From the NCBI GenBank assembly GCA_044070495.1, contig JBIPSI010000020.1, positions 32,001 through 96,000 of the forward strand: 64,000 bases of DNA, in the 5' to 3' direction. Below, piece by piece: positions 48,802 to 61,432 of this stretch. Below the pieces are notes generated by a model that was not told where the DNA came from, did no database searches, and saw only the letters and a program-made list of their open reading frames with translations. The position numbers were made by a program, and so were the translations under genes. The DNA is from Spirulina sp. Its GTDB lineage: Bacteria; Cyanobacteriota; Cyanobacteriia; Phormidesmidales; Phormidesmidaceae. Numbering within the stretch: position 1 is the first letter of the stretch; every line of letters starts with the position of its first letter.

Positions 48802-49048
48802 TTTCCAATACTTCAGCCTCTCACACCCTTGTCCCCTTAGGATCGACTCGGTACCCGCCCGCCGTCTAACCCTTGCCGGTGTTGACGCACCCAGTCGGTC
48901 AAGGACAGCAACCCCTAGGTCAACGGCCTTCCCTCGTCCACCGAAATGCCGAGGGGAATGATACTATCTTGGAGCTTCAGTGCTATCCCCAGGGCTTCGG
49001 GGGAATGTTGTGGCCAAGGACACCCTAGGAGAGACTCGTAGGACGGTT

Positions 49049-49885
49049 ATGCAGACGCGGATTTTGGAGAAGCAGGATATCTTAACGGGCTACGATGCCG
49101 TGTGTCCGCTCTACCCCCATCTTCCGTCGGTGAGCCACTGGCGTGCCTGGGAGTACGCAGGCTACCAGCACTATCACCTGAGTGGAGACATTCTGGATCT
49201 GGGCTGTGGCGATGGGCAATACTTTCGGCTGCTGTGGCCCCAGACGGGCTGTGTGGTTGGGGTGGATATTAACCCCGCCGCGATCAGTCTGGCCGAGGGA
49301 AGTGGCGTCTACAAGACCGTTCACCTCACGGAGGCCCACCAGGTACCGGAGCCGGATGGGCGCTTTGATCATGTCTTTGCCAACTGTTCCCTAGAGCACA
49401 TGGATGAACTCGATGCGGTGCTGGCGGAGGTGTATCGCTGCCTGAAGCCAGGGGGAACCTTGCTCTGTAGTGTGGTCACCCATCGCTTTATTGAGTGGGC
49501 CTGGCTAGGGCAACTGATGGCCCAGGCCGGATTTCGTGAAGCGGCCCAAGCCCTCAACCAGGATTTTCTAGATTTCCACAACCTCGCCAACCCCCTCACC
49601 CCAACAGAGTGGGAGCAGCGTTTTCTGAAGGCCAAGCTGGTGCCAGAGGATCACATCCCGCTTTTGCCCCAGCACAACAGTAGTGTGTTTTTATTTATCG
49701 ATAGCCTTTGGCACCTGAGACAGGCCGGGGGTGGCGAGGTCGGGCATCAGGTGCTTCCGATCTTGGCCACCAACCCCAACTTCCCCGCCGGGTTTCGATC
49801 TGTCCTGGCCGGGTTGTTAGATATGGAAACCGACTGGCTAGACTGTAGCGGGGCCATTTTCCACGCCAGAAAGCCCATGGCCTGA
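49049..49885 (+). CDS. class I SAM-dependent methyltransferase
   Basis: ILDLGCGDG, FDHVFANCSLEH, RCLKPGG. Confidence 0.9.
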   Translation: MQTRILEKQDILTGYDAVCPLYPHLPSVSHWRAWEYAGYQHYHLSGDILDLGCGDGQYFRLLWPQTGCVVGVDINPAAISLAEGSGVYKTVHLTEAHQVPEPDGRFDHVFANCSLEHMDELDAVLAEVYRCLKPGGTLLCSVVTHRFIEWAWLGQLMAQAGFREAAQALNQDFLDFHNLANPLTPTEWEQRFLKAKLVPEDHIPLLPQHNSSVFLFIDSLWHLRQAGGGEVGHQVLPILATNPNFPAGFRSVLAGLLDMETDWLDCSGAIFHARKPMA

Positions 49886-49994
49886 TTGCCCCCTTAAACC
49901 CAATGCCGGTCAGGGTTTTGTCCCGCAGAGTCTGCGGGGTGGCGAATCGCGACAGCCTGACCGTGCCTTCGCCCAGATTTTCTCTAAAAACATC

Positions 49995-50234
49995 GTGCAA
50001 CCAGGGTTTGCCGAGGCGGCCCAGGCCAAAGCCCAGGCCACTCCTCCGGTTGAGGTGGTCAAGCCCGTGGATGAGCGGGCCACGATGCGGGCCACGATGC
50101 GGGCCGACCTCCGCCAGTATTTGGACGTGCAGGCCCAGCACCCAGAGGCCATCATTCTCGTAAAGTCCCCGGATCTGCGGTTTTATAAGGCGTTTCTGGA
50201 GGGAGTTCAGCAAACGCTATCATCATCGCCATAA
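49995..50234 (+). CDS. small hypothetical protein (doubtful)
   Basis: 79-aa ORF with a 12-bp tandem duplication. Confidence 0.3.
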   Translation: MQPGFAEAAQAKAQATPPVEVVKPVDERATMRATMRADLRQYLDVQAQHPEAIILVKSPDLRFYKAFLEGVQQTLSSSP

Positions 50235-50347
50235 ATTCCATCACAGCAAGCTCCTCAGACCCTCGCCTGAATTCTGCTTGCTGCTTTCCTTGTCGGACCA
50301 AATGGATAAAGTCGAGCTAAGATAGTAGCGTCCGAAAATGCTCCAGA

Positions 50348-51436
50348 CTACTTGGCTGCAATAATATGAAGATCGACGCTAGGAAGCGCTCGCATGAGCC
50401 GCTGGACAATCGAGCCTTTTGTCAGCAGTTGCCAGCGTGATCGTTGGGTTTCTCCCAAAACAATTTGAGTGACATAATTGTTGGTCGCAATGTTGGCAAT
50501 GGCTCTGACCACATCCTCAGATTCTACCCGCAAAAACTCACCCTCAAATTCCTCACAGAGCCGTTTGCAAGTTTCGACATGAAGCGCTTCTACCTTAGAC
50601 AAAAACTGATGGGGATGAGCGACAAACAGCACATAAAAGCGACCATTCATTTGGCTTGCGATACGTGCCCCTCGCCGCAACAGTTGAATTGAACTGGGAT
50701 TTGTTGAAACACATACCAAAATGCATTCTTGGATATTGCAGTAATTCTGGGCGTTTTCCTCTCGGCCATTTTCTTCAATATTGTCGGCAACTTCTCTCAG
50801 GGCTAATTCTCGCAAAGCCACCAGATTCTGGCGCTTAAAAAAGTTTTGCAAAGCCTGATCAATCTTTGTGGGAGCGTAGATTTTACCCTCCTGTAACCGC
50901 TCTTGCAACGTTTCAGGGGTGACATCAATGACTACGACCTCATCGGCTTCGTCAATCAGGCGATCAGGCACTCGTTCTCGCACCACGACCCCAGAAATTT
51001 TGTGTACTAGATCATTCAAGCTCTCCAAATGTTGAATATTGATGGTGGAATACACATCAATCCCTGTATCTAAAATGAATTCCACATCTTGATAACGCTT
51101 TTCTCGTAGTGAACCAGGAACATTAGTATGGGCCAACTCATCAATAAGCACTAGGTGGGGGCAACGGTCGATAATACCCTGGACATCCATCTCCATCAGG
51201 CCACGTCCCTGCCAAAATGTCGGCTTCAGTGGGACTTGTTCTAGGCCATCAGCCTTTTCAGCAGTGTCGGCTCGTCCGTGGGTTTCTAATAAACCAATCA
51301 CCACATCAAAGCCTTCCTGCTTAAGCTGCTGTCCTTCCTCCAGCATCCGGTAGGTTTTGCCCACCCCAGGAGCCATGCCGATAAAAATTTTGTGCTTGCC
51401 TCGGCGGGGAGGAGAGGGGGATTGGGTGGGGGACAT
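50348..51436 (-). CDS. kdpD: short cyanobacterial KdpD (KdpD + USP domains, no kinase)
   Basis: RRGKHKIFIGMAPGVGKTYRML, DELAHTN, NIQHLESLND; real start MSPTQ (the upstream in-frame extension is repeat DNA). Confidence 0.93.
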   Translation of the reverse strand: MSPTQSPSPPRRGKHKIFIGMAPGVGKTYRMLEEGQQLKQEGFDVVIGLLETHGRADTAEKADGLEQVPLKPTFWQGRGLMEMDVQGIIDRCPHLVLIDELAHTNVPGSLREKRYQDVEFILDTGIDVYSTINIQHLESLNDLVHKISGVVVRERVPDRLIDEADEVVVIDVTPETLQERLQEGKIYAPTKIDQALQNFFKRQNLVALRELALREVADNIEENGREENAQNYCNIQECILVCVSTNPSSIQLLRRGARIASQMNGRFYVLFVAHPHQFLSKVEALHVETCKRLCEEFEGEFLRVESEDVVRAIANIATNNYVTQIVLGETQRSRWQLLTKGSIVQRLMRALPSVDLHIIAAK

Positions 51437-51445
51437 GGGGGGGTG

Positions 51446-51586
51446 GAGGGTTGGGAGGTTGGGAGATTGGGAGGTTGGAGGGTTGGGAGGTTGGGAGGTT
51501 GGGAGGTTGGGAGGTTGGAAGGTTGGAAGGTTGGAAGGTTGGAGGGGTTGAGAGTTTGAGGGGTTGAACTTTCCAGCTTTCCCACC
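51446..51586. repeat. 8-bp tandem array (12 units GGAGGTTG/GAAGGTTG) plus short inverted arm
   Basis: Units at 51446-51541; inverted AACTTTCCAGCTTTCC at 51567-51582. Confidence 0.95.
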
Positions 51587-51587
51587 T

Positions 51588-52274
51588 TCAACCGTTGAAT
51601 TGAGGACGGGTGTGGGGTTGGGTGGTGGCGCGGTGGAGGGTTTGTTGAGCGGGTGTGTAGGTGGGGTCGAGGTCGAGGGCGGCACGGTATTTTTTTAGGG
51701 CGTCGAGTCGGTTGCCGAGGTATTCTTCAATTTCACCCAAGAGGGTTAGGGCTTCGGGGCGTTTTGGGTTGCAGCGCAGCGCCTCTTTCAAAAAGCCTGT
51801 GGCCTGGGAGTAATCTTGGCGATTGAGGTAGTCTTGAGCGGTCTTAAGCAGGGTGTCGTAGTCCGCATCAAGCTTGGCCCAGGGGTGGGGACTTTCCAGG
51901 GTCTTACGGACAATGGATTGAATGGTGCGGGCGCTGAAAGGCTTTTGCACATAGCCATGGGGTTCTTGAATAAAGTCCATAGCACCCGACTTCATGGCCT
52001 GTACGGCTTCATCAACGCTACTGTGAACGGCGGTAACGATCACCCGCAAGCAGGGATAGTCGTGAAGTAGCTGCCGAATGATGTCCACATCCTCAGTCTG
52101 GGTAAGCATCGCATCTAAGATCGCCACATCGATATGCTGATGAGCCAGAATTTCATTAGCAGCCTCAATGGTTTCTGCTTGGAGGACTTCGTAGTCAGCG
52201 GCAGTTAAAAACTGTGCCACGGTGCTGCGGGATATCTCGTCATGGTGAATAATCAGGATGGTGTTTTTTAGCAT
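51588..52274 (-). CDS. response regulator receiver plus TPR protein
   Basis: DVAILDAML, AVQAMKSGAMDFI, KPF; TPR PEALTLLGEI...YRAALDLDPTY. Confidence 0.88.
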   Translation of the reverse strand: MLKNTILIIHHDEISRSTVAQFLTAADYEVLQAETIEAANEILAHQHIDVAILDAMLTQTEDVDIIRQLLHDYPCLRVIVTAVHSSVDEAVQAMKSGAMDFIQEPHGYVQKPFSARTIQSIVRKTLESPHPWAKLDADYDTLLKTAQDYLNRQDYSQATGFLKEALRCNPKRPEALTLLGEIEEYLGNRLDALKKYRAALDLDPTYTPAQQTLHRATTQPHTRPQFNG

Positions 52275-52288
52275 GGGATTAGAGCGAT

Positions 52289-52375
52289 GAGAACGTGAGA
52301 ACGTGAGTAGGGGAGGTTGGGAGGTTGGGAGGTTAGAAGGTTAGAAGGTTGGGAGGTTAGAAGGTTGGGAGGTTG
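52289..52375. repeat. 8-bp tandem array (8 units G(G/A)AGGTT(G/A)) preceded by GAGAACGT x2
   Basis: Units at 52312-52375. Confidence 0.93.
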
Positions 52376-52446
52376 TAAAGGTTTAAGTCTCTAAAATTTT
52401 TCACTTTCAAATCTTCACACTTACTAAAAATCCTCACACCTATATT

Positions 52447-53016
52447 TCAGCGGTTATCCAGCGCTAAATTTAGGGTCAAGACATTGATTCCGGGTTCACC
52501 AAAAATCCCTAGAAATCGACCGTCAGTGTTTTGAGCAATGAGTGATTGAACTTCGTCTACCGACAGCCCTCGTGCCTGAGCTACTCGCTCCACCTGGGCT
52601 TCGGCGGCGGCGGGGGAAATATGTGGGTCAAGGCCAGAGCCAGAGGAATAAAGCAGATCGGCAGTGGGTTCCACTCCCTCACTGCGAAGGCGTTCAGCTT
52701 CTACTTTAATGCGCTCTAACAGTTCAGAATTATCGGGAGCTAGGTTGCTGCCACCGGATAGGCCCGTGGGATTCGCATCGCCCCCTTCGCTGTAGGCAAT
52801 GACGCTGGGACGACTCCAGAAGTACTCATTGGTGGTGAAGGTTTGGCCAATCAATGCTGACCCCACGATTTCACCCTGGCTATTGGTTAGTAAGCTGCCG
52901 TTGGCCTGGTAGGGAAAAGCCGTTTGGCCGATGAGAAAAATTAGGAGTGGATAGAGAAATGCTGTCAAGAGCCAGAGGGTGGCAATACTGCGGATGCTGA
53001 TGATGAGGTCTTGCAT
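52447..53016 (-). CDS. kdpC: K+-transporting ATPase subunit C
   Basis: FPYQANGSL...GSALIGQ, YFWSRPS, SGSGLDPHISP, NVLTLNLALD. Confidence 0.96.
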   Translation of the reverse strand: MQDLIISIRSIATLWLLTAFLYPLLIFLIGQTAFPYQANGSLLTNSQGEIVGSALIGQTFTTNEYFWSRPSVIAYSEGGDANPTGLSGGSNLAPDNSELLERIKVEAERLRSEGVEPTADLLYSSGSGLDPHISPAAAEAQVERVAQARGLSVDEVQSLIAQNTDGRFLGIFGEPGINVLTLNLALDNR

Positions 53017-53040
53017 GGGAAGTAAGGGGGTAGGGGTTTG

Positions 53041-53080
53041 AAGGTGTGAACGTGTCAACGTGTGAACGCTGGAACGTTGG
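53041..53080. repeat. degenerate 8-bp tandem array (5 units)
   Basis: AAGGTGTG AACGTGTC AACGTGTG AACGCTGG AACGTTGG. Confidence 0.8.
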
Positions 53081-53084
53081 TTTT

Positions 53085-53276
53085 TTAAAACTTTTCGGGT
53101 TGGACGATCACTGCGGCTAAATAGACAGCGAGACCCACGACAACGAGGCCGAGAAGACCGAGGGCATAGGCGGTGCCACGGGAGATATCTGGGCCGGTAG
53201 TGGCATGGAGAGCGGGTGCAATCAAAGCGTTGATCAGCAAACCCAGCAGCAAAATTTTGGGGAGATTAGGTTTCAT
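53085..53276 (-). CDS. kdpF: KdpF-like small hydrophobic subunit (cyanobacterial KdpG position)
   Basis: Two TM segments, C-terminal YLAAVIVQPEKF; lies between kdpB and kdpC. Confidence 0.85.
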   Translation of the reverse strand: MKPNLPKILLLGLLINALIAPALHATTGPDISRGTAYALGLLGLVVVGLAVYLAAVIVQPEKF

Positions 53277-53329
53277 AGGAAGAAAGGTTTTGTGATGGAT
53301 GATGGATAGGGTTTAAGAATTAGATGTTG

Positions 53330-53430
53330 TCAGGTTAGAAGGTTGTCAGGTTAGAAGGTTGGAAGGTTGGAAGGTTAAAAACTTAGAAAACCTAAACCTT
53401 CACACGTTCCAACCTTCACATGTTCCAACC
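53330..53430. repeat. 8-bp tandem arrays in inverted arrangement
   Basis: Six forward units at 53330-53377; inverted AACCTTCA CACGTTCC AACCTTCA CATGTTCC at 53395-53426. Confidence 0.92.
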
Positions 53431-53432
53431 CC

Positions 53433-55523
53433 CTAAAAATTCGTTACCGCCGACACCCCCAAATCAATGACCTTAATGGCGACAAACGGGGCGATAATGC
53501 CGCCGAGGCCGTAGATCAAAATGTTGCGCTGGAGCAATTGATTAGCAGTTAACGGACGAAATTCGATGCCTTTTAGGGCCAGGGGAATGAGGGCGGGGAT
53601 GATAAGGGCGTTGTAGATTAGAGCCGAAAGTACGGCGGTGCGTGGGCTGCTGAGGCCCATCACATTTAGGGCACCGATGCCTGCCGATGCAAACATTGCA
53701 GGGATGATGGCAAAGTATTTGGCGATGTCGTTGGCTAGGGAGAAGGTGGTGAGGGCACCACGGGTGATCAATAACTGTTTGCCAATGGTGACCAGGTCGA
53801 TCAGTTTGGTGGGATCGGAGTCGAGGTCTACCATGTTGGCGGCTTCTTTGGCGGCCTGGGTGCCGGAGTTCATGGCTACTCCGACGTTGGCTTGGGCTAA
53901 GGCGGGGGCATCGTTGGTGCCGTCCCCGGTCATGGCCACTAGCTTGCCTTGGGATTGTTCAGCCTGAATCACCTGAATTTTGTCCTCTGGGGTGGCCTCG
54001 GCCACAAAGTCGTCTACCCCGGCCTCTTCGGCAATCACGGAGGCGGTGATGCGGTTGTCTCCGGTTAGCATCACGGTGCGTACCCCCATGCGGCGCAGTT
54101 GGTCAAAGCGCTCTCGAATACCCGGTTTGATGATGTCTTTGAGGTAAATAACGCCGTAGACATTGCTATTCCGGCAAACAGCCAGGGGGGTGCCGCCCAG
54201 GCGTGAAACTCGCTCGAAAGCTTGATCGAGTTCGGCAGGGGCGGTGCCGCCGCGTGAACGCACAAAGCCGCGAATGGCGTCCACAGATCCTTTACGCACT
54301 TCGCTGCCGTCGGGCAAATCGGTGCCACTCATGCGAGTGCGGGCGGTAAACTCCACGCCTTCGGCCTTGTCTTTGTTAAAAGAGATGGCGGCTCCCAACT
54401 TTTCGGCTAAGCGCACAATAGATTTGCCCTCTGGGGTGGTGTCGAATACGCTGGCCGCCAAGGCGATGTCAGCCACCTCCTGCTCACTGTGGCCGTTGAC
54501 CGGGATAAATTCTTCGGCCAGACGGTTGCCTAGGGTGATGGTGCCAGTTTTGTCTAGCACCAGGGTGTTGATGTCGCCACAGGCTTCTACCGCTCGCCCG
54601 GAGGTAGCCACCACATTGAACTGAGCGACCCGATCCATTCCGGCAATACCGATGGCACTGAGCAGCCCGCCAATAGTGGTAGGAATCAGCGCCACCAGTA
54701 GCGCCACCAAAATGGTGATACCCACTGGACTATTGGCGTAGTTAGCGGGGGCGGGCAAAGTCGCCACCACAATTAAAAACACCAGGGTAAGCACCGCCAG
54801 CAGCACCGTCAGGGCAATTTCGTTGGGGGTTTTGCTGCGCTCGGCCCCTTCCACCAGGGCGATCATGCGGTCAATAAAGCCCTTGCCGGGGTCAGAGGTG
54901 ACTTGCAAAATCAGCTCGTCGGAAATAATCCGGGTGCCGCCCGTCACCGAACTGGCCACGTCGGAACCAGGCTCCTTCAGCACCGGGGCCGACTCGCCCG
55001 TAATCGCCGACTCATCCACCGAGGCCACGCCTTCAATCACCTCACCATCGGCAGGAATCATGTCGCCAGCCACAACTTTGATACGATCCCCCCGCTTCAA
55101 GCTAGTCGAGTTCACCTCTTCTATCGCCCCATCAGCCCGCAACTTTCGAGCAACCGTATCCGAGCGGGTAGATCGCAGGGCATCCGCCTGGGCCTTACCG
55201 CGCCCTTCAGCCACGGCCTCCGCGAAGTTGGCAAACAGCACCGTCAACAACAAAATCAACGTAATTAGCCCGTTATAAACCGCTGCGCCGTCCCCATCGG
55301 TAGGGCCAAATAGGGTAGGGTTCACGGTCAACACAGCGGTGATCACCGTGCCGACCCAAACCACAAACATCACCGGATTTTTCACCATGATGCGTGGATC
55401 GAGCTTGCGAAAAGCTTCGACCACAGCTCTTTGATAAAGGTCGGTCATCTTCGCCTTGGGGGTGTGCTTGCGCTGTTGGCGTGGCCCACCGGGTTGTTTG
55501 AGGGGGAGGGTAGATTGGGTCAT
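53433..55523 (-). CDS. kdpB: K+-transporting ATPase subunit B
   Basis: [39 protein letters not shown]. Confidence 0.98.
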
Positions 55524-55562
55524 GGATCGGGTAAGAGGAATGGTTGGATAATTGGAGAATTA

Positions 55563-55642
55563 GGAGGTGTGAAGGTTGGAAGGTTGGAAGGTGTGAAGGT
55601 TGGAAGGTTGGAAGGTGTGAAGGTTGGAAGGTTGGAAGGTTG
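55563..55642. repeat. 8-bp tandem array, 10 units with a 24-bp higher-order period
   Basis: (G[G/A]AGGTGT GAAGGTTG GAAGGTTG)x3 + GAAGGTTG. Confidence 0.95.
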
Positions 55643-55685
55643 AGATGTGGGAATACTCAGGGAGATATGTTTTTGGTTGATGCAG

Positions 55686-56057
55686 ATGGGTGCTATTCAG
55701 AGATTTGAAGATATCTTGGCTTGGCAGTCGGCGCGGGAGTTGACCAGGTTGGTTTATAGCCTGTCAAATACGGGGAGCTTTGCACGGGATTTTGGCTTGA
55801 AAGATCAAATGCGACGGGCGGCGGTTTCTGTGATGTCCAATATTGCAGAAGGGTTTGAAAGTCGAACTCGAGGCATGTTCATTAACTATTTAGGTCATGC
55901 CAAGGCTTCAGCAGGAGAAGTACGTGCTCAAGCCTATGTGGCGTTGGATGTGGGCTACATTGACCAGACACAATTTGATCACCTAATAACGTTGGCAGAG
56001 CGGTGTAGCAAACAAGTTAGTCGGTTCATGGTGTATTTGGAGGGGAAAAAGGGGTGA
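55686..56057 (+). CDS. four-helix-bundle protein (TIGR02436 / 23S rRNA IVP family, Avd-like fold)
   Basis: RFEDILAWQSARELTRLVY...DFGLKDQMRRAAVSVMSNIAEGFE...FINYLGHAKASAGEVRAQAYVALDVGYI; the start may be 55680. Confidence 0.93.
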   Translation: MGAIQRFEDILAWQSARELTRLVYSLSNTGSFARDFGLKDQMRRAAVSVMSNIAEGFESRTRGMFINYLGHAKASAGEVRAQAYVALDVGYIDQTQFDHLITLAERCSKQVSRFMVYLEGKKG

Positions 56058-56161
56058 GGGTGGGGAGGTGGGGAGGTTAAAAGGTGGAAAGGTTAAAAGG
56101 TGGAAAGGTTCAGAACTTGTCAACTTTCCAACCTTCCAACCTTCCAACTTTCCAACCTTCC
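56058..56161. repeat. inverted pair of 8-bp tandem arrays
   Basis: G-rich units at 56058-56110; five AAC(C/T)TTCC units at 56122-56161. Confidence 0.93.
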
Positions 56162-56163
56162 CA

Positions 56164-57840
56164 CTACCCCAATCTAAACGCCGCTGCCACTGGCCCTAAC
56201 GCTAAAACTGGCAGGAAGGTCAAGGCTCCGAGGATTAAAATGGCTCCGGCGGTGACTCCGGTGAACAGGGGGGTGTCGGTGCGGAGGGTGCCTGCGGTTT
56301 CGGGGACGGGTTGTTTGCGGGCCATGCCGTCGGCGAGGAAAATCAGGGCGGCAATGGGCACGTAGCGACCGACGAGGAGGGAGAAGCTGGTGCTGAGGTT
56401 CCACCAGAGGGTGTTGTCGCCTAACCCCTCAAAGCCGGAGCCGTTGTTGGCGGCAGCGGAGGCATATTCGTAGACTACCTGGGAAATGCCGTGGAAGCCG
56501 GGATTGCTGATGCCGGAGAGGGTTGCCGGGAAAGCTAGGGTGATGGCGGTGGGAATCAGGATGGCAATGGGGTGAACGAGCAGAATTAGGCTAGCGAGGA
56601 CGATTTCGCGCTTTTCGATTTTGCGACCCAGAAATTCGGGAGTGCGCCCCACCATTAGCCCGGTGAGGAAGACGGTAAGAATCAGAAATACAAATAGGTA
56701 GGCGGTTCCGGTGCCCTGTCCACCCCAAACGATCTGCAAAAACAGGTTAGAGAGGGTGACAAAGCCGCCTGTGGGCATCAGGGAATCGTGCAGACCGTTG
56801 ATGGCTCCGCACATGGTGCCCGTGGTGGAAACGGCCCAAAGAGCGGTGAGGAAAGGCCCAAAGCGGGTTTCTTTACCCTCCAAATTGGGCTGTTGGCTGC
56901 CAAGCACCTGATTGACCAGCGGATTGCCCTGGTATTCACCCACGGCGGCAATGGCGATAAAGGCAACAAAGATGGCAAACACCATCCAGAAGATCAGCCA
57001 ACCCTGTTTGGGATTGCTCGCCATGTAGCCGTAGGTGAGAATCAGTCCGGCGGGAATCACCAGCATGATCACGGTTTCGAGCAGGTTGGTAAAGTTGTTG
57101 GGGTTTTCAAAAGGGTGGGCGGAGTTGATACCAAAGAAGCCGCCGCCGTTTTCCCCCAATTCTTTGATGATTTCAAAGTGGGCTACTGGGCCACGGGCGA
57201 TGAATTGGGTGGCTCCCTCCAGGGTAGTAGCCTGGGCGGGGGCTGCAAAGGTTTCGGGTACTCCGGCAATTAGCAGGGCAATTGCCCCCACGATTGAAAT
57301 CGGCAGCAAAATGCGGGTAATCGACACCATTAAATCGGTGTAGAAATTGCCTAGGGGTCGCCCCGTTAACCCACGAATAAAGGCAATCGCCACCGCAATG
57401 CCCGTCGCCGCCGAGGTAAACATCAGAAATCCCAACGCCCCCACCTGACTGAAATAGCTGTAGGTGGTTTCGCCGGAATAGTGCTGCTGGTTCGTATTCG
57501 TGGTAAACGAAATAGCCGTGTGCAGACCTAGATCCCAGCTTGGGGCACCTAGCTCTGTCGGATTTAGGGGCAGCACCCCCTGGAGCATAAAAATAACGTA
57601 GACCAACATGATCATGGCTAGGTTGCTGACCAGTACGGCACGAATATATTGACCACCAGTCATCGGACGGTTATCAAGTACGCCAGACCCAGAAAAAACG
57701 ACTCGCTCCACCGGAGAAACAATCCAATCCAGCCAGGTTTTTTCACCCAGAAAGACTTGGGCCATATAGCGCCCCAGTACAGGTGAAACCGCCGCCAAGA
57801 TGACGAGTATCAAAGCTATCTGAAGAAATCCTTGTAGCAT
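56164..57840 (-). CDS. kdpA: K+-transporting ATPase subunit A
   Basis: [52 protein letters not shown]. Confidence 0.98.
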
Positions 57841-58374
57841 GGGATTGATAGATATAAAGCAACACAGACAGACACATCCAGAAGAAAACAGTCCCCGCTA
57901 ATGCACTTTTTGCCTGAGCTTCAAGCAATTTCCTAGATGAGGAGAGATGGCAGGGTTGAGAGCAATGGCAATCAGACAATCACCATCTTCAACCACAGGA
58001 TTCTGGTGAAAATGAATCAACTGCTCTGCTCGAACTAAGCCTAGAAAATGACAACTATCCGGCAGACAAATTGCCCCCAGGGTTTTTCCAAGGTGTGCGC
58101 TGTGAAAATAAACCGTACCAGTAATCAACTTGGCCTTCATGACGAGAGACTTTCCAAAAAAGAGCCATTCGATATCTCCATTTTGCTACTCTTTCACCTA
58201 AAAATAAGGTATAGAAAAGTGTTTAATCTAGATTTATACCCTCCATCTAAGCTCCAACTAGACATAGCGTTTAGGCAATGATTAAACTCCTATATCATTT
58301 GATATAAACGTCACCACTCCACACCAAGTCAGCCCTAAAATAGATTGACAAAATCACCTCAACCAAACGCCCAT

Positions 58375-58427
58375 AACCTTCCAACCTTCCAACCTTCCAC
58401 TCTCCCAACCCCCCACCTCCCTCCCCC
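58375..58427. repeat. AACCTTCC x3 plus degenerate units directly before the kinase start
   Basis: Perfect units at 58375-58398. Confidence 0.85.
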
Positions 58428-59537
58428 ATGCCCCGCCCCACCCCCCCCTGGCAACAAACCCACTGGCTGATTGCCGCCCTCTTTGTTGTGGTCATTGGGC
58501 TGGAATACAGCACACCACCGCCCTACGTATTTGGCTATCTGTACATTGGGGCGGTGCTTTTGGCCAGCGGACGACTGGGCCGAGGGGCAACACGGTGGGT
58601 AACGGCAATCGCCATTGTGCTCACCCTGCTCAACCTGGTGATCCCTGGCCTAGAGCCGATTAGTACGGTGACCATCGCCAATCGGGCGATTACGGTGCTA
58701 GCCCTGGCGGTGACGGGATGGCTGAGCGACCGCATTCAGCGCTACGAGAAGGCCATCACCCACCAGCACGCCCAAATCTTGGCCCAGGCCCAACTGGCTC
58801 GGATGCGGGAAGATTTTGTCTCGACCCTGACCCACGATTTGAAAACACCACTGCTGGGGGCGATAGAGACCCTCCACGCCCTGGAGACCGAGCAGTTTGG
58901 AGCAGTGACATCGGCCCAGCGGCGGGCCATCACGATCATGACGCGCAGTCACCAGACCACCCTGCAACTGGTGGAAACCCTGATGGATGTCTACCGCAAC
59001 GACGCCGAGGGGTTACGCCTCAACCTGAGCGCTGTGGACGTCGTTTCCCTGGCAGAGGACACCATCATGCAACTCACGGCCCTAGCGGCTTCCCGGCAGG
59101 TGCATATTCGTCTACACCAAGGGGAATCCGACTTTCGCCAGCCCTGCTGGGTAAGGGCCGATGTGCTCCAGCTCCAGCGAGTGCTGAGCAACCTGATTGC
59201 CAACGCCATTCACCATTCGTTGCGGGGCAGTTTGGTGGAGGTCGTGATTCGCCATCACGGCGATGATTGTTTGGTGCAGGTATTGGATCAAGGCCAGGGC
59301 ATCGCCGCCGATGAAATGGCCCACCTATTCGAGCGGTTTTACCAGGGCCACAGTGATCGTCAGGCCAAGGGTACCGGACTGGGCCTCTACCTCAGCCGTC
59401 AGATTGTGGAGGCCCACGGCGGCAGAATTTGGGCCGAACCGCGCCAGCCCACGGGGGCGGTGTTTGCGTTTCGACTGCCCGCTCAGTCCCCGGTACAGGA
59501 TAATAGCCTGATGGTACGCACTGCTAACCTCCGATGA
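58428..59537 (+). CDS. membrane sensor histidine kinase, divergent from kdpA
   Basis: TM region, STLTHDLKTPL, NLIANAI, DQGQG, GTGLGL. Confidence 0.95.
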   Translation: MPRPTPPWQQTHWLIAALFVVVIGLEYSTPPPYVFGYLYIGAVLLASGRLGRGATRWVTAIAIVLTLLNLVIPGLEPISTVTIANRAITVLALAVTGWLSDRIQRYEKAITHQHAQILAQAQLARMREDFVSTLTHDLKTPLLGAIETLHALETEQFGAVTSAQRRAITIMTRSHQTTLQLVETLMDVYRNDAEGLRLNLSAVDVVSLAEDTIMQLTALAASRQVHIRLHQGESDFRQPCWVRADVLQLQRVLSNLIANAIHHSLRGSLVEVVIRHHGDDCLVQVLDQGQGIAADEMAHLFERFYQGHSDRQAKGTGLGLYLSRQIVEAHGGRIWAEPRQPTGAVFAFRLPAQSPVQDNSLMVRTANLR

Positions 59538-60202
59538 CCGACCAGCCTATTGATATTCTTCTGGTCGAAGACGATGAGCTGTTTCGACTGGGCCTTACCA
59601 CTCGGTTGCAGCAGGAGCCGACCTTGCAGGTTGTCGCTGAAGCGGAGGACGGCGAAACGGCCATCGCCCTAGTCAACCAGCAGCCCTTCGACGTGGTGCT
59701 GCTGGACATCGGCCTGCCGGGAATTGGCGGTCTCGAAGCCTGTCGCCAGATCAAGCAGCAGCATCCCAACTTGCCAGTGCTGGCCCTCACTTCCCACAAC
59801 CAGCCAGCCCTGATTGCCCGCCTGATCGAAGCCCAGGCCCAGGGCTACTGTGTCAAGGGCATTGCCGCCGAGGCGCTGGTGCTGGCGATTCGCTCCGTTG
59901 CCCTGGGGGCTACCTGGTGGGATGCCATCGCCTCCCAGGAAATTCAGGCTGCGTTCCAGTCCCCCGCCCTAGAATCGCCACCCACCCATACCCCGACCAC
60001 CCTAGACACCCTCACTAAACGCGAGCAAGAAATCCTAGCGCTGATGGCGGTAGGGCAAAGCAATCAGGAAATTGCCGAGGCTCTCTACATTGCCCCCGGC
60101 ACGGTGCGCGTCCATGTCCACTCCATTTTGCAAAAGCTGGAGGTGCGTGATCGAACCCAGGCCGTCATTCTGGCGATGCAGATGGGTCTCGTTTCACCCT
60201 AG
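59534..60202 (+). CDS. NarL/LuxR-family response regulator
   Basis: LLVEDD, LLDIGLP, LTKREQEIL...TVRVHVHSILQKL. Confidence 0.95.
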   Translation: MTDQPIDILLVEDDELFRLGLTTRLQQEPTLQVVAEAEDGETAIALVNQQPFDVVLLDIGLPGIGGLEACRQIKQQHPNLPVLALTSHNQPALIARLIEAQAQGYCVKGIAAEALVLAIRSVALGATWWDAIASQEIQAAFQSPALESPPTHTPTTLDTLTKREQEILALMAVGQSNQEIAEALYIAPGTVRVHVHSILQKLEVRDRTQAVILAMQMGLVSP

Positions 60203-60607
60203 AAAAAGCCTGCGGCAATGACTGATGATCGGAATCCTTCGGCCTAACGATGACTTAGACCAACCCCCACAACGTTGATTCCCCCTGATCATCCGCAGGG
60301 GCGTGCGCTTGGCTCCAGTCAATAGGGCCTGACTAGATGGAGCCTGACTAAATAAAGCCTGGCAAGCTAGGCCAACCTAGGACTTTTATGGAGACTTGGT
60401 TAAGGCGAGATTGCCCTGCATCAAGTTCTGTCCGTCGCTGCCCTAGATCAGCCTAGGGGTTTTCCCGGAGGTGTTAGGGTAATGTCGAGTTCTGGGGCCA
60501 TCGCTAGGCCAGGGGATATTCCACCAAGCCTAGGGCAGCAATTGGCAATCTGGGACAACGTTATAAATGACCGCCATAGATACTGATATTGATACCTGTC
60601 ACGTAAC

Positions 60608-61432
60608 GTGGATCTCCATCAGCTACACCAAGCCCTCCAACAACCTCCCGGCAGCCTCGGTGTTTTGCCGGAGTTTGCTGGATTGCGCCCCTGTTTCCAA
60701 GTCCAGTGGGTGAAGCAAACCGAATCCACCAATCACGATCTAATGGCCCAAATGGCGTCGGGGGCAGTGGCAGGAACCGTATTGATCGCGGCTACCCAGC
60801 GGGCCGGACGGGGGCAGTGGGGCCGCCAGTGGCAGTCGGCGGCGGGGGGGCTGTATCTCTCCCTAGGGCTGCGGCCAGAGATGACGGTGGAGCGCAGTCT
60901 CTATCTCACCCTGGCTAGCGCTTGGGGGCTGGCCACCAGCCTAGCCAACCTGGGTATTCCAGCTCAGGTGAAATGGCCCAACGATCTCGTGGTGCAGGGG
61001 CGCAAGCTGGGGGGCATTTTGACCGATACACGGGTGCAGGGGGATCGGGTGCAGGCGGTGGTGGTCGGATTGGGGCTGAACGTCCAAAATCCAGTGCCGC
61101 CTACGGGAATTTCCCTAGGCCACCTGTCAAAGTTGCCGGAACCGCCGCCCGGCCCCCTGAATACCTTGGAGGGCGTCGCCGCTGTAGCGCTCTACGGGCT
61201 GATGCAGGGCTACAGCGTTTGGCAAAACCAGGGCGATCAAGCTTTCCTGGCCCTCTATCAGCAGCGTATGACCCACCTGGGCCAGCCGGTGGTGATAGAG
61301 GACCAGTCGGCCACAGTAACGGGTCTTGCCCCTTCCGGGAACCTGTCGGTGCGGGTCTCGTCCGACGGTAGCTGTGCGCCCCTGGAATGGGAAATTAAGC
61401 CGGGCGAAGTAACTTTAGGCTACAATGCGTAG
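60608..61432 (+). CDS. birA: biotin--[acetyl-CoA carboxylase] ligase
   Basis: STN, QRAGRGQWGRQW, KWPNDL, KLGGIL. Confidence 0.93.
   Translation: MDLHQLHQALQQPPGSLGVLPEFAGLRPCFQVQWVKQTESTNHDLMAQMASGAVAGTVLIAATQRAGRGQWGRQWQSAAGGLYLSLGLRPEMTVERSLYLTLASAWGLATSLANLGIPAQVKWPNDLVVQGRKLGGILTDTRVQGDRVQAVVVGLGLNVQNPVPPTGISLGHLSKLPEPPPGPLNTLEGVAAVALYGLMQGYSVWQNQGDQAFLALYQQRMTHLGQPVVIEDQSATVTGLAPSGNLSVRVSSDGSCAPLEWEIKPGEVTLGYNA

Follow-up and report, generated by a model that had tools for sequence, protein, structure and literature searches.

A hairpin cassette with a four-helix-bundle gene in a cyanobacterial kdp operon, set among probably independent octamer arrays

Why should a potassium-pump operon carry tandem octamers in every gap between its genes, and does the small antisense gene in their midst have anything to do with them? 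The question is raised by the kdp locus of a Spirulina sp. genome (G000; assembly of 5.31 Mb in 74 contigs, 56.7% G+C; other G numbers denote related genomes), which lies in a stretch of 64,000 nucleotides that we call the window (G000:C20:32001-96000). The original prediction made from this DNA held that the four-helix-bundle (4HB) protein encoded between kdpA and kdpB and the arrays of the locus form one module. We called arrays with Tandem Repeats Finder (TRF), read the sequence directly as well, and arrived at a layered locus as the probable reading, in which an intervening-sequence (IVS)-type hairpin cassette sits among independent, gene-less arrays of the short tandemly repeated repetitive (STRR) class in the other gaps. 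The single module is thus supported for the gene and the two arms that touch it, which are inverted and recurrent (34/45 and 49/72 loci in two sets of homologues described below), and is not supported for the locus as a whole, since the same octamer occurs in 14 other clusters, none of them near a 4HB gene.

Positions 55544-56161 are an IVS-type hairpin cassette in which the 4HB gene lies between mutually inverted octamer arrays, antisense in the kdpA-kdpB gap (Table 1). Arm 1, which is purine-rich on the 4HB sense strand, is built on a 24-mer of three octamers (TRF 55565-55653, x3.2, 100% matches) with its end 32 nt ahead of the 4HB start codon, and arm 2 stops 2 nt short of the kdpA stop codon. 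Minimum-free-energy RNA folds of the 640-nt kdpA-kdpB spacer, each compared with 20 shuffles per strand, pair the arms 55544-55653 and 56121-56161 with one another on both strands, at -134.5 kcal/mol on the kdp-sense strand (z -5.46, 0/20 shuffles as good) and at -204.3 kcal/mol on the 4HB-sense strand (z -3.67, 0/20 as good). The orthologous cassette of G018 has unrelated arm units (GCGAGGGTGCG-type) that are paired nonetheless (-231.1 kcal/mol, z -5.29); on these fold models, arm sequence is free and arm pairing is kept. In both the kdp polycistronic RNA and the 4HB transcript the arms would pair into a long duplex enclosing the gene, and this duplex may be an RNase III-type substrate, with cleavage at the kdpA-kdpB junction resembling the removal of IVS stems from 23S rRNA. 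Three RNase III-family genes are present in G000.

The family of the enclosed gene is as originally proposed, with the open reading frame (ORF) 55686-56057 matching PF05635 at 107.2 bits (cut-off 33.8) and TIGR02436 at 100.9 bits (cut-off 24). Its AlphaFold2 (AF2) model consists of four long helices (predicted local distance difference test, pLDDT, 92.8) and aligns with XCC0516 (2gsc; template-modelling score, TM, 0.86/0.90; root-mean-square deviation, rmsd, 1.6), with BT_0352 (2rld; TM 0.78/0.89) and, more distantly, with Avd (4dwl_D; TMq 0.76, TMt 0.86, rmsd 2.0, 12% identity), so the predicted sharing of a fold with Avd likewise holds. By sequence, phmmer matched the protein to 2gsc (8.4e-12) and 2rld and did not reach Avd; it also returned PDB chain 2x3e_A, a 3-oxoacyl-ACP synthase 3, at E 1.4e-05 over chain residues 104-211. 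The conserved family motif GxxRxxxSxxxNxxE, as set out in the accessible part of PMC3936711, is present as ...QMRRAAVSVMSNIAEG..., with the leading G off the stated spacing, and alignment A2 shows no variation at Q41, R43, R44, S48, N52 and E55. Between G000 and G005 the ratio of nonsynonymous to synonymous substitution rates (dN/dS) is 0.042 at dS 0.25 for the 4HB gene, compared with 0.035 for kdpB (dS 0.30) and 0.058 for kdpA (dS 0.21) of the same pair; a ratio so like those of kdpB and kdpA implies a working gene that has been resident since the G000/G005 split. Given the fold of Avd and XCC0516, the most likely activity of this protein is putatively the binding of its own cassette's nucleic acid.

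To score inverted flanks, we aligned the left flank of each gene locally against the reverse complement of its right flank. The first set comprised the surroundings of PF05635 matches in 40 relatives, of which 45 were testable and 3 loci had flanks that were too short; its controls were 1189 genes of G000, with a 99th-percentile score of 29. The score exceeded the 99th percentile in 34/45 homologues and the 95th in 41/45. A wide set of 80 loci (72 testable), drawn from a scan of species genomes with a 10-sequence alignment and including Chloroflexota, Planctomycetota, Nitrospirota, Bacteroidota, Acidobacteriota and Saccharibacteria, was compared with 270 in-locus control intervals, and 49/72 loci exceeded their 99th percentile. 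Tandem arrays, most commonly of period 7, lay within 200 bp on the left in 51/80 of these loci, on the right in 61/80 and on both sides in 40/80. The 5' flank on the gene's sense strand was purine-rich in 29/43 cyanobacterial loci and pyrimidine-rich in 6, and in the wide set purine-rich in 51/75 and pyrimidine-rich in 2. By comparison, only 8/244 arrays of G000 have an inverted partner within 150 bp, and inverted arms therefore belong to the gene rather than to arrays in general.

These controls bear directly on the idea that chance alone brought the 4HB gene to, or kept it in, a permissive region rich in arrays, its arms being ordinary arrays that were there already. Arrays are indeed common in G000, with 177 of period 7/8, and they also occur in genomes that lack the gene. 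Inverted flanks, however, are rare for arrays and for control genes and are the rule for PF05635, and no array stands in the kdpA-kdpB gap of G015, from which the cassette is absent. Strongly disfavoured by the inverted-flank and array-partner controls, mere coincidence strikes us as very improbable.

The genome has four PF05635 genes, all touching short tandem arrays and each with a different unit: the octamer GGAAGGTT, the heptamer TTGGTTA/AACCAAY, the heptamer TTCAAAG and a 9/17-mer of GGGGGTGAG type. Among 4154 crude ORF-genes of G000, scored for an array within 120 bp, 200 have an array of period 6-9 on at least one flank and 10 on both; for period 7/8 only, 167 genes have one on one flank and 10 on both, and the four 4HB genes score both, both, one and none. 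Decayed 4HB copies were sought beside the other array clusters of G000 by tblastn with 44 homologues (E up to 10), which returned the four known genes and chance-level matches only. The TTCAAAG-armed cassette (G000:C16:82400-83500, L138) interrupts a Y1 (IS200-like) transposase gene; the upstream part of that gene covers positions 5-58 of the 121 in PF01797 and breaks off at the start of the arm. Another cassette lies in a type I-D-like cas operon with heptamer arrays in several gaps (G000:C1:141000-148000, L134), in the order csc2, cas6, Polbeta/HepT pair, cas4, cas1, 4HB cassette, cas2, CRISPR array. The cas1-cassette-cas2 order recurs in G019 (L029), where the 4HB protein is 97.5% identical (dN/dS 0.049), and PF05635 genes in cas loci have already been reported in the accessible part of PMC3936711. 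Contigs often end in tandem arrays (for example G000:C19:108494-108645 and G000:C43:4-146), and in relatives many PF05635 matches are found no more than a few hundred bases from where a contig stops; counts of arrays and of PF05635 genes from draft assemblies are probably too low.

At the kdp site itself we compared 15 loci, the window and 14 relatives. The cassette is present in three (G000, G005 and G018), in each case antisense in the kdpA-kdpB gap, and absent from the other 12, and the 4HB proteins of these three loci group together as a single clade (support 100/97). G015, whose KdpB is 97.0% identical to that of G018, is without the cassette: its kdpA-kdpB gap is short and array-free, and the C-terminus of its KdpA resembles those of outgroups. 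In cassette carriers the last KdpA codons extend into the arm. DNA identity between G018 and G015 in 150-nt windows is 86-98% in kdpB and 57-92% in kdpA, a contrast that places a recombination breakpoint at the cassette. The kdpA genes of this pair (L002, L003) are mosaic, with identity down to 57% at the kdpA 5' end, which points to recombination within the operon.

The array content of the other gaps differs even among carriers. The RR-kdpD gap, between the response-regulator (RR) and kdpD-like genes, measures 151 bp in G000, and in G005 it is array-free and only 50 bp long; the kdpC-RR gap measures 172 versus 109 bp; the hairpin that follows kdpB has more units in G000 than in G005; and GTTGGCAC-type units occupy in G005 the place of the 58375-58421 array. 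As far as sequence comparison tells, the gap arrays of the G000 kdp locus are tandem expansions of the shorter G005 versions. G015, with no 4HB gene in kdp, has AACGTTGG x4.4 upstream of kdpC, as in G018, and a remnant upstream of kdpD, and the other 11 cassette-free loci have no array of at least 3 copies in their kdp gaps. Against the module count both G015, with arrays but no gene in its kdp operon, and G005, which has the gene with almost no array in two gaps.

Within the locus, TRF and direct reading agree on arrays at all seven places that the original prediction had listed. That one octamer is shared by all seven is true in general, with the exception of 53039-53077, whose unit, TGAACGTG, is different though related. 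With at most 2 mismatches allowed, a two-unit GGAAGGTTGGAAGGTT pattern is matched 33 times in the window (0.06 expected), a number that 0/100 shuffles reach; since all 33 fall in 51445-58398, the statement that the other 57 kb contain none is correct. All the arrays are intergenic, provided that KdpD starts at the ATG at 51436. This is the likely start, up to which homologues align, and the mechanical ORF 50348-51685 overruns the first array (51449-51566). On the kdp sense strand that array reads (AACCTYCC)n; in the kdpC/RR gap, the GGGAGGTT x8.1 array spans 52311-52375; and the array at 58375-58421 is C-rich on the sense strand of the histidine-kinase gene. The locus has two inverted-array pairs, one at 53326-53430, where AGGTTAGA x7.1 (53326-53388) faces inverted AACCTTCACACGTTCC x2.2 (53395-53430), and one at 56056-56161.

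Beyond the window, the kdp octamer pattern forms 20 clusters in the genome, 6 at kdp and 14 on 10 other contigs. All 14 lie away from 4HB genes, and on the sole contig that holds one of them together with such a gene the distance is 114 kb. In G000, period 7 accounts for 115 TRF rows and period 8 for 75, in unit families that include AACCAAT, AACAACC, ACTCCCG, AAAGTTC, ACCACCCC and AACCTTCC; merged and restricted to at least 3 copies, the period-7/8 arrays number 177, compared with 4 4HB genes. They lie in co-directional gaps (88) more than in divergent (25) or convergent (11) ones. The C-rich strand is the sense strand in 60 co-directional gaps versus 21 (7 neutral), and in 60 versus 16 cases (5 neutral) within 150 bp upstream of start codons, and the kdp arrays follow this genome-wide rule. 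Among relatives, GGGTGGATx3 is present in 20/24 same-genus genomes, two of which, both 100% complete, have GGGTGGAT arrays (GGGTGGATx3) without any PF05635 match (G016 with 48 and G017 with 73 hits); the arrays therefore do not need a 4HB gene. The mapping thus found arrays spread largely independently of 4HB genes, an outcome that the original prediction had itself named as contrary to it. Genome-wide, what survives of the one-module claim is that array density peaks at two of the four 4HB genes, and what counts against it is the disproportion of 177 arrays to 4 genes. By sequence and placement, the arrays in the other kdp gaps are assigned to the known class of gene-less short tandem repeats (STRR/heptamer), which would grow and shrink by tandem duplication and need no 4HB gene nearby or in the genome.

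Heptamer and octamer arrays also run in frame through open genes, namely metH (1238 amino acids), a GH38 mannosidase (1230 amino acids) and an oxoprolinase (1298 amino acids), at G000:C14:10798-13048 (L136), G000:C19:6111-8403 (L135) and G000:C11:48325-50219 (L137). They lie at domain borders with the C-rich strand as sense, and are translated as, for example, PHHPTTPPPHHP, DSRLPTP and GFKVQNSKFKIQSS.

The same data weigh on a regulatory role, in which the 4HB protein would be an RNA-binding regulator with (AACCUUCC)n sites before each kdp cistron that tune expression of the pump; the protein would then be expected to prefer (AACCUUCC)n or (GGAAGGUU)n RNA or DNA. The unit does occur in every operon gap, where the kdp sense strand is invariably the C-rich one and start codons are near, the gene is kept in the kdp operon of three species under purifying selection, and the fold is that of the nucleic-acid-binding Avd. 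However, the C-rich-on-sense orientation is the genome-wide array rule and not a kdp feature, the unit is found at 14 unrelated places as well, 12/15 kdp loci work without the gene, and G005 has the gene with little or no array in its kdpC-RR and RR-kdpD gaps. Paralogues and homologues elsewhere have unrelated neighbourhoods, between cas1 and cas2, in a Y1-transposase gene and after toxin-antitoxin-like genes, and occur in many phyla. We regard a kdp regulator as quite unlikely.

Several observations count against the layered reading that we prefer. The outer stem in G005 is weak (inverted-flank score 24, fold z -1.22, 3/20 shuffles as good), so that not all carriers retain the long stem. The inverted-flank scores of 11/45 homologues in relatives and of 23/72 wide-set loci fall below the 99th percentile of the controls. 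A consensus scan of 55300-56400 found neither a sigma-70-like promoter nor an intrinsic terminator. An attempt to polarise the difference between G018 and G015 as gain or as loss of the cassette gave no direction, owing to the recombination breakpoint at the site. Two further points concern the arrays themselves: the two densest array clusters of the genome, at the kdp and cas loci, both sit on 4HB cassettes and use their arm units, which a purely independent origin does not predict, and TTGGTTAx3 is concentrated in two genomes, with 152 hits in G000, 83 in G019 and at most 5 in each of the other 39 genomes (5 in G005).

The first of these two points invites a reading in which a selfish cassette has its arms copied into nearby intergenic DNA by gene conversion, template switching or some protein-aided route. 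The two 7-kb stretches of the 5.31-Mb assembly densest in period-7/8 arrays are kdp, the densest of all with 8, and the cas locus on C1, with 6, against 0.23 expected; each holds a 4HB cassette with arm units in its neighbours. Moreover, G018, with the cassette, has an array-filled kdpC-kdpD gap of 248 bp, and its sister G015, without it, a gap of 105 bp. This evidence, however, comes from two loci of one genome and one pair of sister species. G005 has the same cassette without expansions, the C16 and C19 cassettes have no extra period-7/8 arrays within 8 kb, and the next three densest clusters, inside the mannosidase, metH and oxoprolinase genes, are without a 4HB gene. As an account of the locus, local seeding is rather unlikely in our judgement, and for the dense arm-unit arrays immediately around the cassette, local copying from the arms would be our best guess.

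The second point touches a broader proposal, that PF05635 proteins are trans-acting partners of the STRR, heptamer and octamer repeats, with arms that carry the recognised unit and a protein that promotes the copying, expansion or maintenance of that same unit. By analogy with RAYT-REPIN, a unit would spread first beside its cassette and then genome-wide, and arrays without a gene would be fossils kept by slippage. G000 and G019 are precisely the two genomes whose orthologous cas-locus cassette has a TTGGTTA arm. GGGAGTCx3 is found 158 times in G005, which has a cassette with that arm, and 59 and 43 times in G019 and G000, in which no such cassette was found. A strict rule that would confine the abundance of an arm unit to genomes with its cassette was rejected by GGGTGGAT. 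The TTGGTTA and GGGAGTC correlations are also expected if arms adopt the commonest local unit or if drafts miss cassettes, and we therefore keep this cognate-repeat reading at a low probability, as unlikely. If true, it would account for a class of repeats that has lacked an explanation since 1990.

The genes of the kdp locus lie on the minus strand, except for the 4HB gene and a two-component pair that is divergent from kdp and adjoins it in relatives too (Table 1). The ORF of 80 amino acids upstream of kdpA is 92% identical in G005 and 40-68% identical in other relatives, and several kdp loci have it. At the far end of the window, positions 419-1131 hold a CRISPR-like array in two blocks, with a repeat of ~37 nt and a period of 74 nt.

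Table 1. Genes, cassette parts and tandem arrays of the kdp locus, in window positions
Feature	Position	Strand	Evidence
kdpD-like non-kinase potassium sensor (N-terminal KdpD + Usp domains)	50348..51436	-	PF02702 3e-94, NF038185 1.2e-133
Array GGTTGGGA x14.6 (+ strand), RR-TPR/kdpD gap, no gene inside	51449..51566		TRF
Response-regulator receiver + TPR protein (RR-TPR)	51588..52274	-	PF00072 1.9e-15 + TPR families
Arrays TGAGAACG x2.5 and GGGAGGTT x8.1, kdpC/RR-TPR gap, gene-less	52288..52375		TRF
kdpC	52447..53058	-	PF02669 7.6e-67, TIGR00681
Short array TGAACGTG x4.9, between kdpF-like ORF and kdpC	53039..53077		TRF
Small membrane ORF, KdpF-type C-terminus	53085..53276	-	PF09604 2.1e-08, residues 40-63
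Gene-less hairpin, two inverted arrays, directly after kdpB stop	53326..53430		TRF
kdpB, P-type ATPase subunit	53433..55523	-	TIGR01497 1163 bits
Cassette arm 1, (GGAAGGTG TGAAGGTT GGAAGGTT) x3.2	55544..55653	+	TRF
4HB gene, 123 amino acids, antisense to kdp genes	55686..56057	+	PF05635, TIGR02436
Inner array AGGTGGAAAGGTTAAA x2.8, oriented as arm 1, begins at 4HB stop codon	56056..56110	+	TRF
Cassette arm 2, CAACCTTC x5.1, reverse complement of arm 1	56121..56161	+	TRF
kdpA	56164..57840	-	PF03814 1e-231, TIGR00680
Conserved 80-amino-acid ORF upstream of kdpA	57898..58140	-	weak TrkA C-terminal-like match, NF007032 4.5e-4
Array AACCTTCC x4.5, directly upstream of divergent histidine-kinase gene	58375..58421		TRF
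Histidine kinase (58428-59537) + LuxR-type response regulator (59534-60202)	58428..60202	+	profile matches

As to the original finding, this analysis serves mainly to correct it, most of the arrays being nothing unusual in this genome. Hairpin inserts that carry a gene are textbook knowledge for 23S rRNA only, from which RNase III removes them. Here the same build stands inside a protein-coding operon, conserved across species and under purifying selection, which suggests that small cassettes of a broader class, so far undescribed, can reside in polycistronic mRNAs and may split them. It also offers a candidate link between the PF05635 family and the heptamer and octamer repeats of cyanobacteria and other bacteria.

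Among known systems, the RAYT-REPIN arrangement consists of one gene flanked by inverted copies of a short repeat that is also dispersed through the genome without the gene. The kdp 4HB gene likewise lies between inverted repeat copies whose unit is dispersed gene-less. Unlike RAYT, the 4HB protein shows no motif recognisable as that of a nuclease or transposase, REPINs are fixed palindromes whereas the kdp repeats are tandem arrays, and arrays of one unit persist in genomes that have no 4HB gene. A second relative is Avd (PDB 4DWL, 8UB7), the accessory protein of diversity-generating retroelements, which has the same four-helix-bundle fold as the kdp protein and is treated as homologous to PF05635 in the accessible part of PMC10053308. 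No reverse transcriptase lies beside the 4HB gene, the ORFs of at least 200 amino acids in 49000-61000 all belonging to kdp, two-component or methyltransferase families.

The gene-less arrays resemble the STRR, heptamer and LSSR repeats, which are described in the accessible parts of PMC2670836, PMC4692102 and PMC4679880 as short tandem units in co-directional gaps, strain-variable in copy number and lineage-specific, at times forming hairpins inside operons (hupS-hupL). Intergenic repeats inside cyanobacterial operons are there identified as STRR sequences with no function assigned (PMC2670836), and the G-rich heptamer repeats of Xanthomonas and Nostoc have their G-rich strand antisense upstream of ORFs (PMC4692102), an orientation with which the C-rich-on-sense rule of G000 agrees. 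The STRR/heptamer unit has 7 nt and the kdp unit 8 nt; G000 has both periods. The accessible parts of these three papers make no link between the repeats and a PF05635 gene, and the terms 'four helix', '23S' and 'S23' have 0 occurrences in that of PMC4679880.

The closest counterpart of the cassette is the ORF-carrying IVS of 23S rRNA (Leptospira, helix 45 of Coxiella burnetii, Brucella, and the Xanthomonas-type S23p), in which, as far as the accessible sources describe it, a PF05635 ORF sits in the loop of a long stem of terminal inverted repeats, as in the fold predicted here. Neither element contains any other gene. In the accessible part of PMC4990558, RNase III cleaves the terminal-inverted-repeat stem of the Coxiella IVS, whose S23p start codon is preceded by three tandem heptamers; its 28-bp stem is shorter than the kdp arms, which consist wholly of tandem octamers and measure about 90 nt and 40 nt. 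Excision by RNase III is shown for the rRNA IVS and only predicted for the kdp cassette. Our literature search, in which most subscription journals were not covered, found no description, other than in rRNA, of inverted tandem arrays with a PF05635 gene between them. Whereas the rRNA IVS occupies a 23S helix (25 or 45), the kdp cassette lies antisense between two protein genes of an mRNA operon, and because of this kdpA-kdpB position we describe it as built like an rRNA IVS and do not file it as one. New, then, is an IVS-type element in an mRNA operon; already known is the repeat class to which the other arrays belong.

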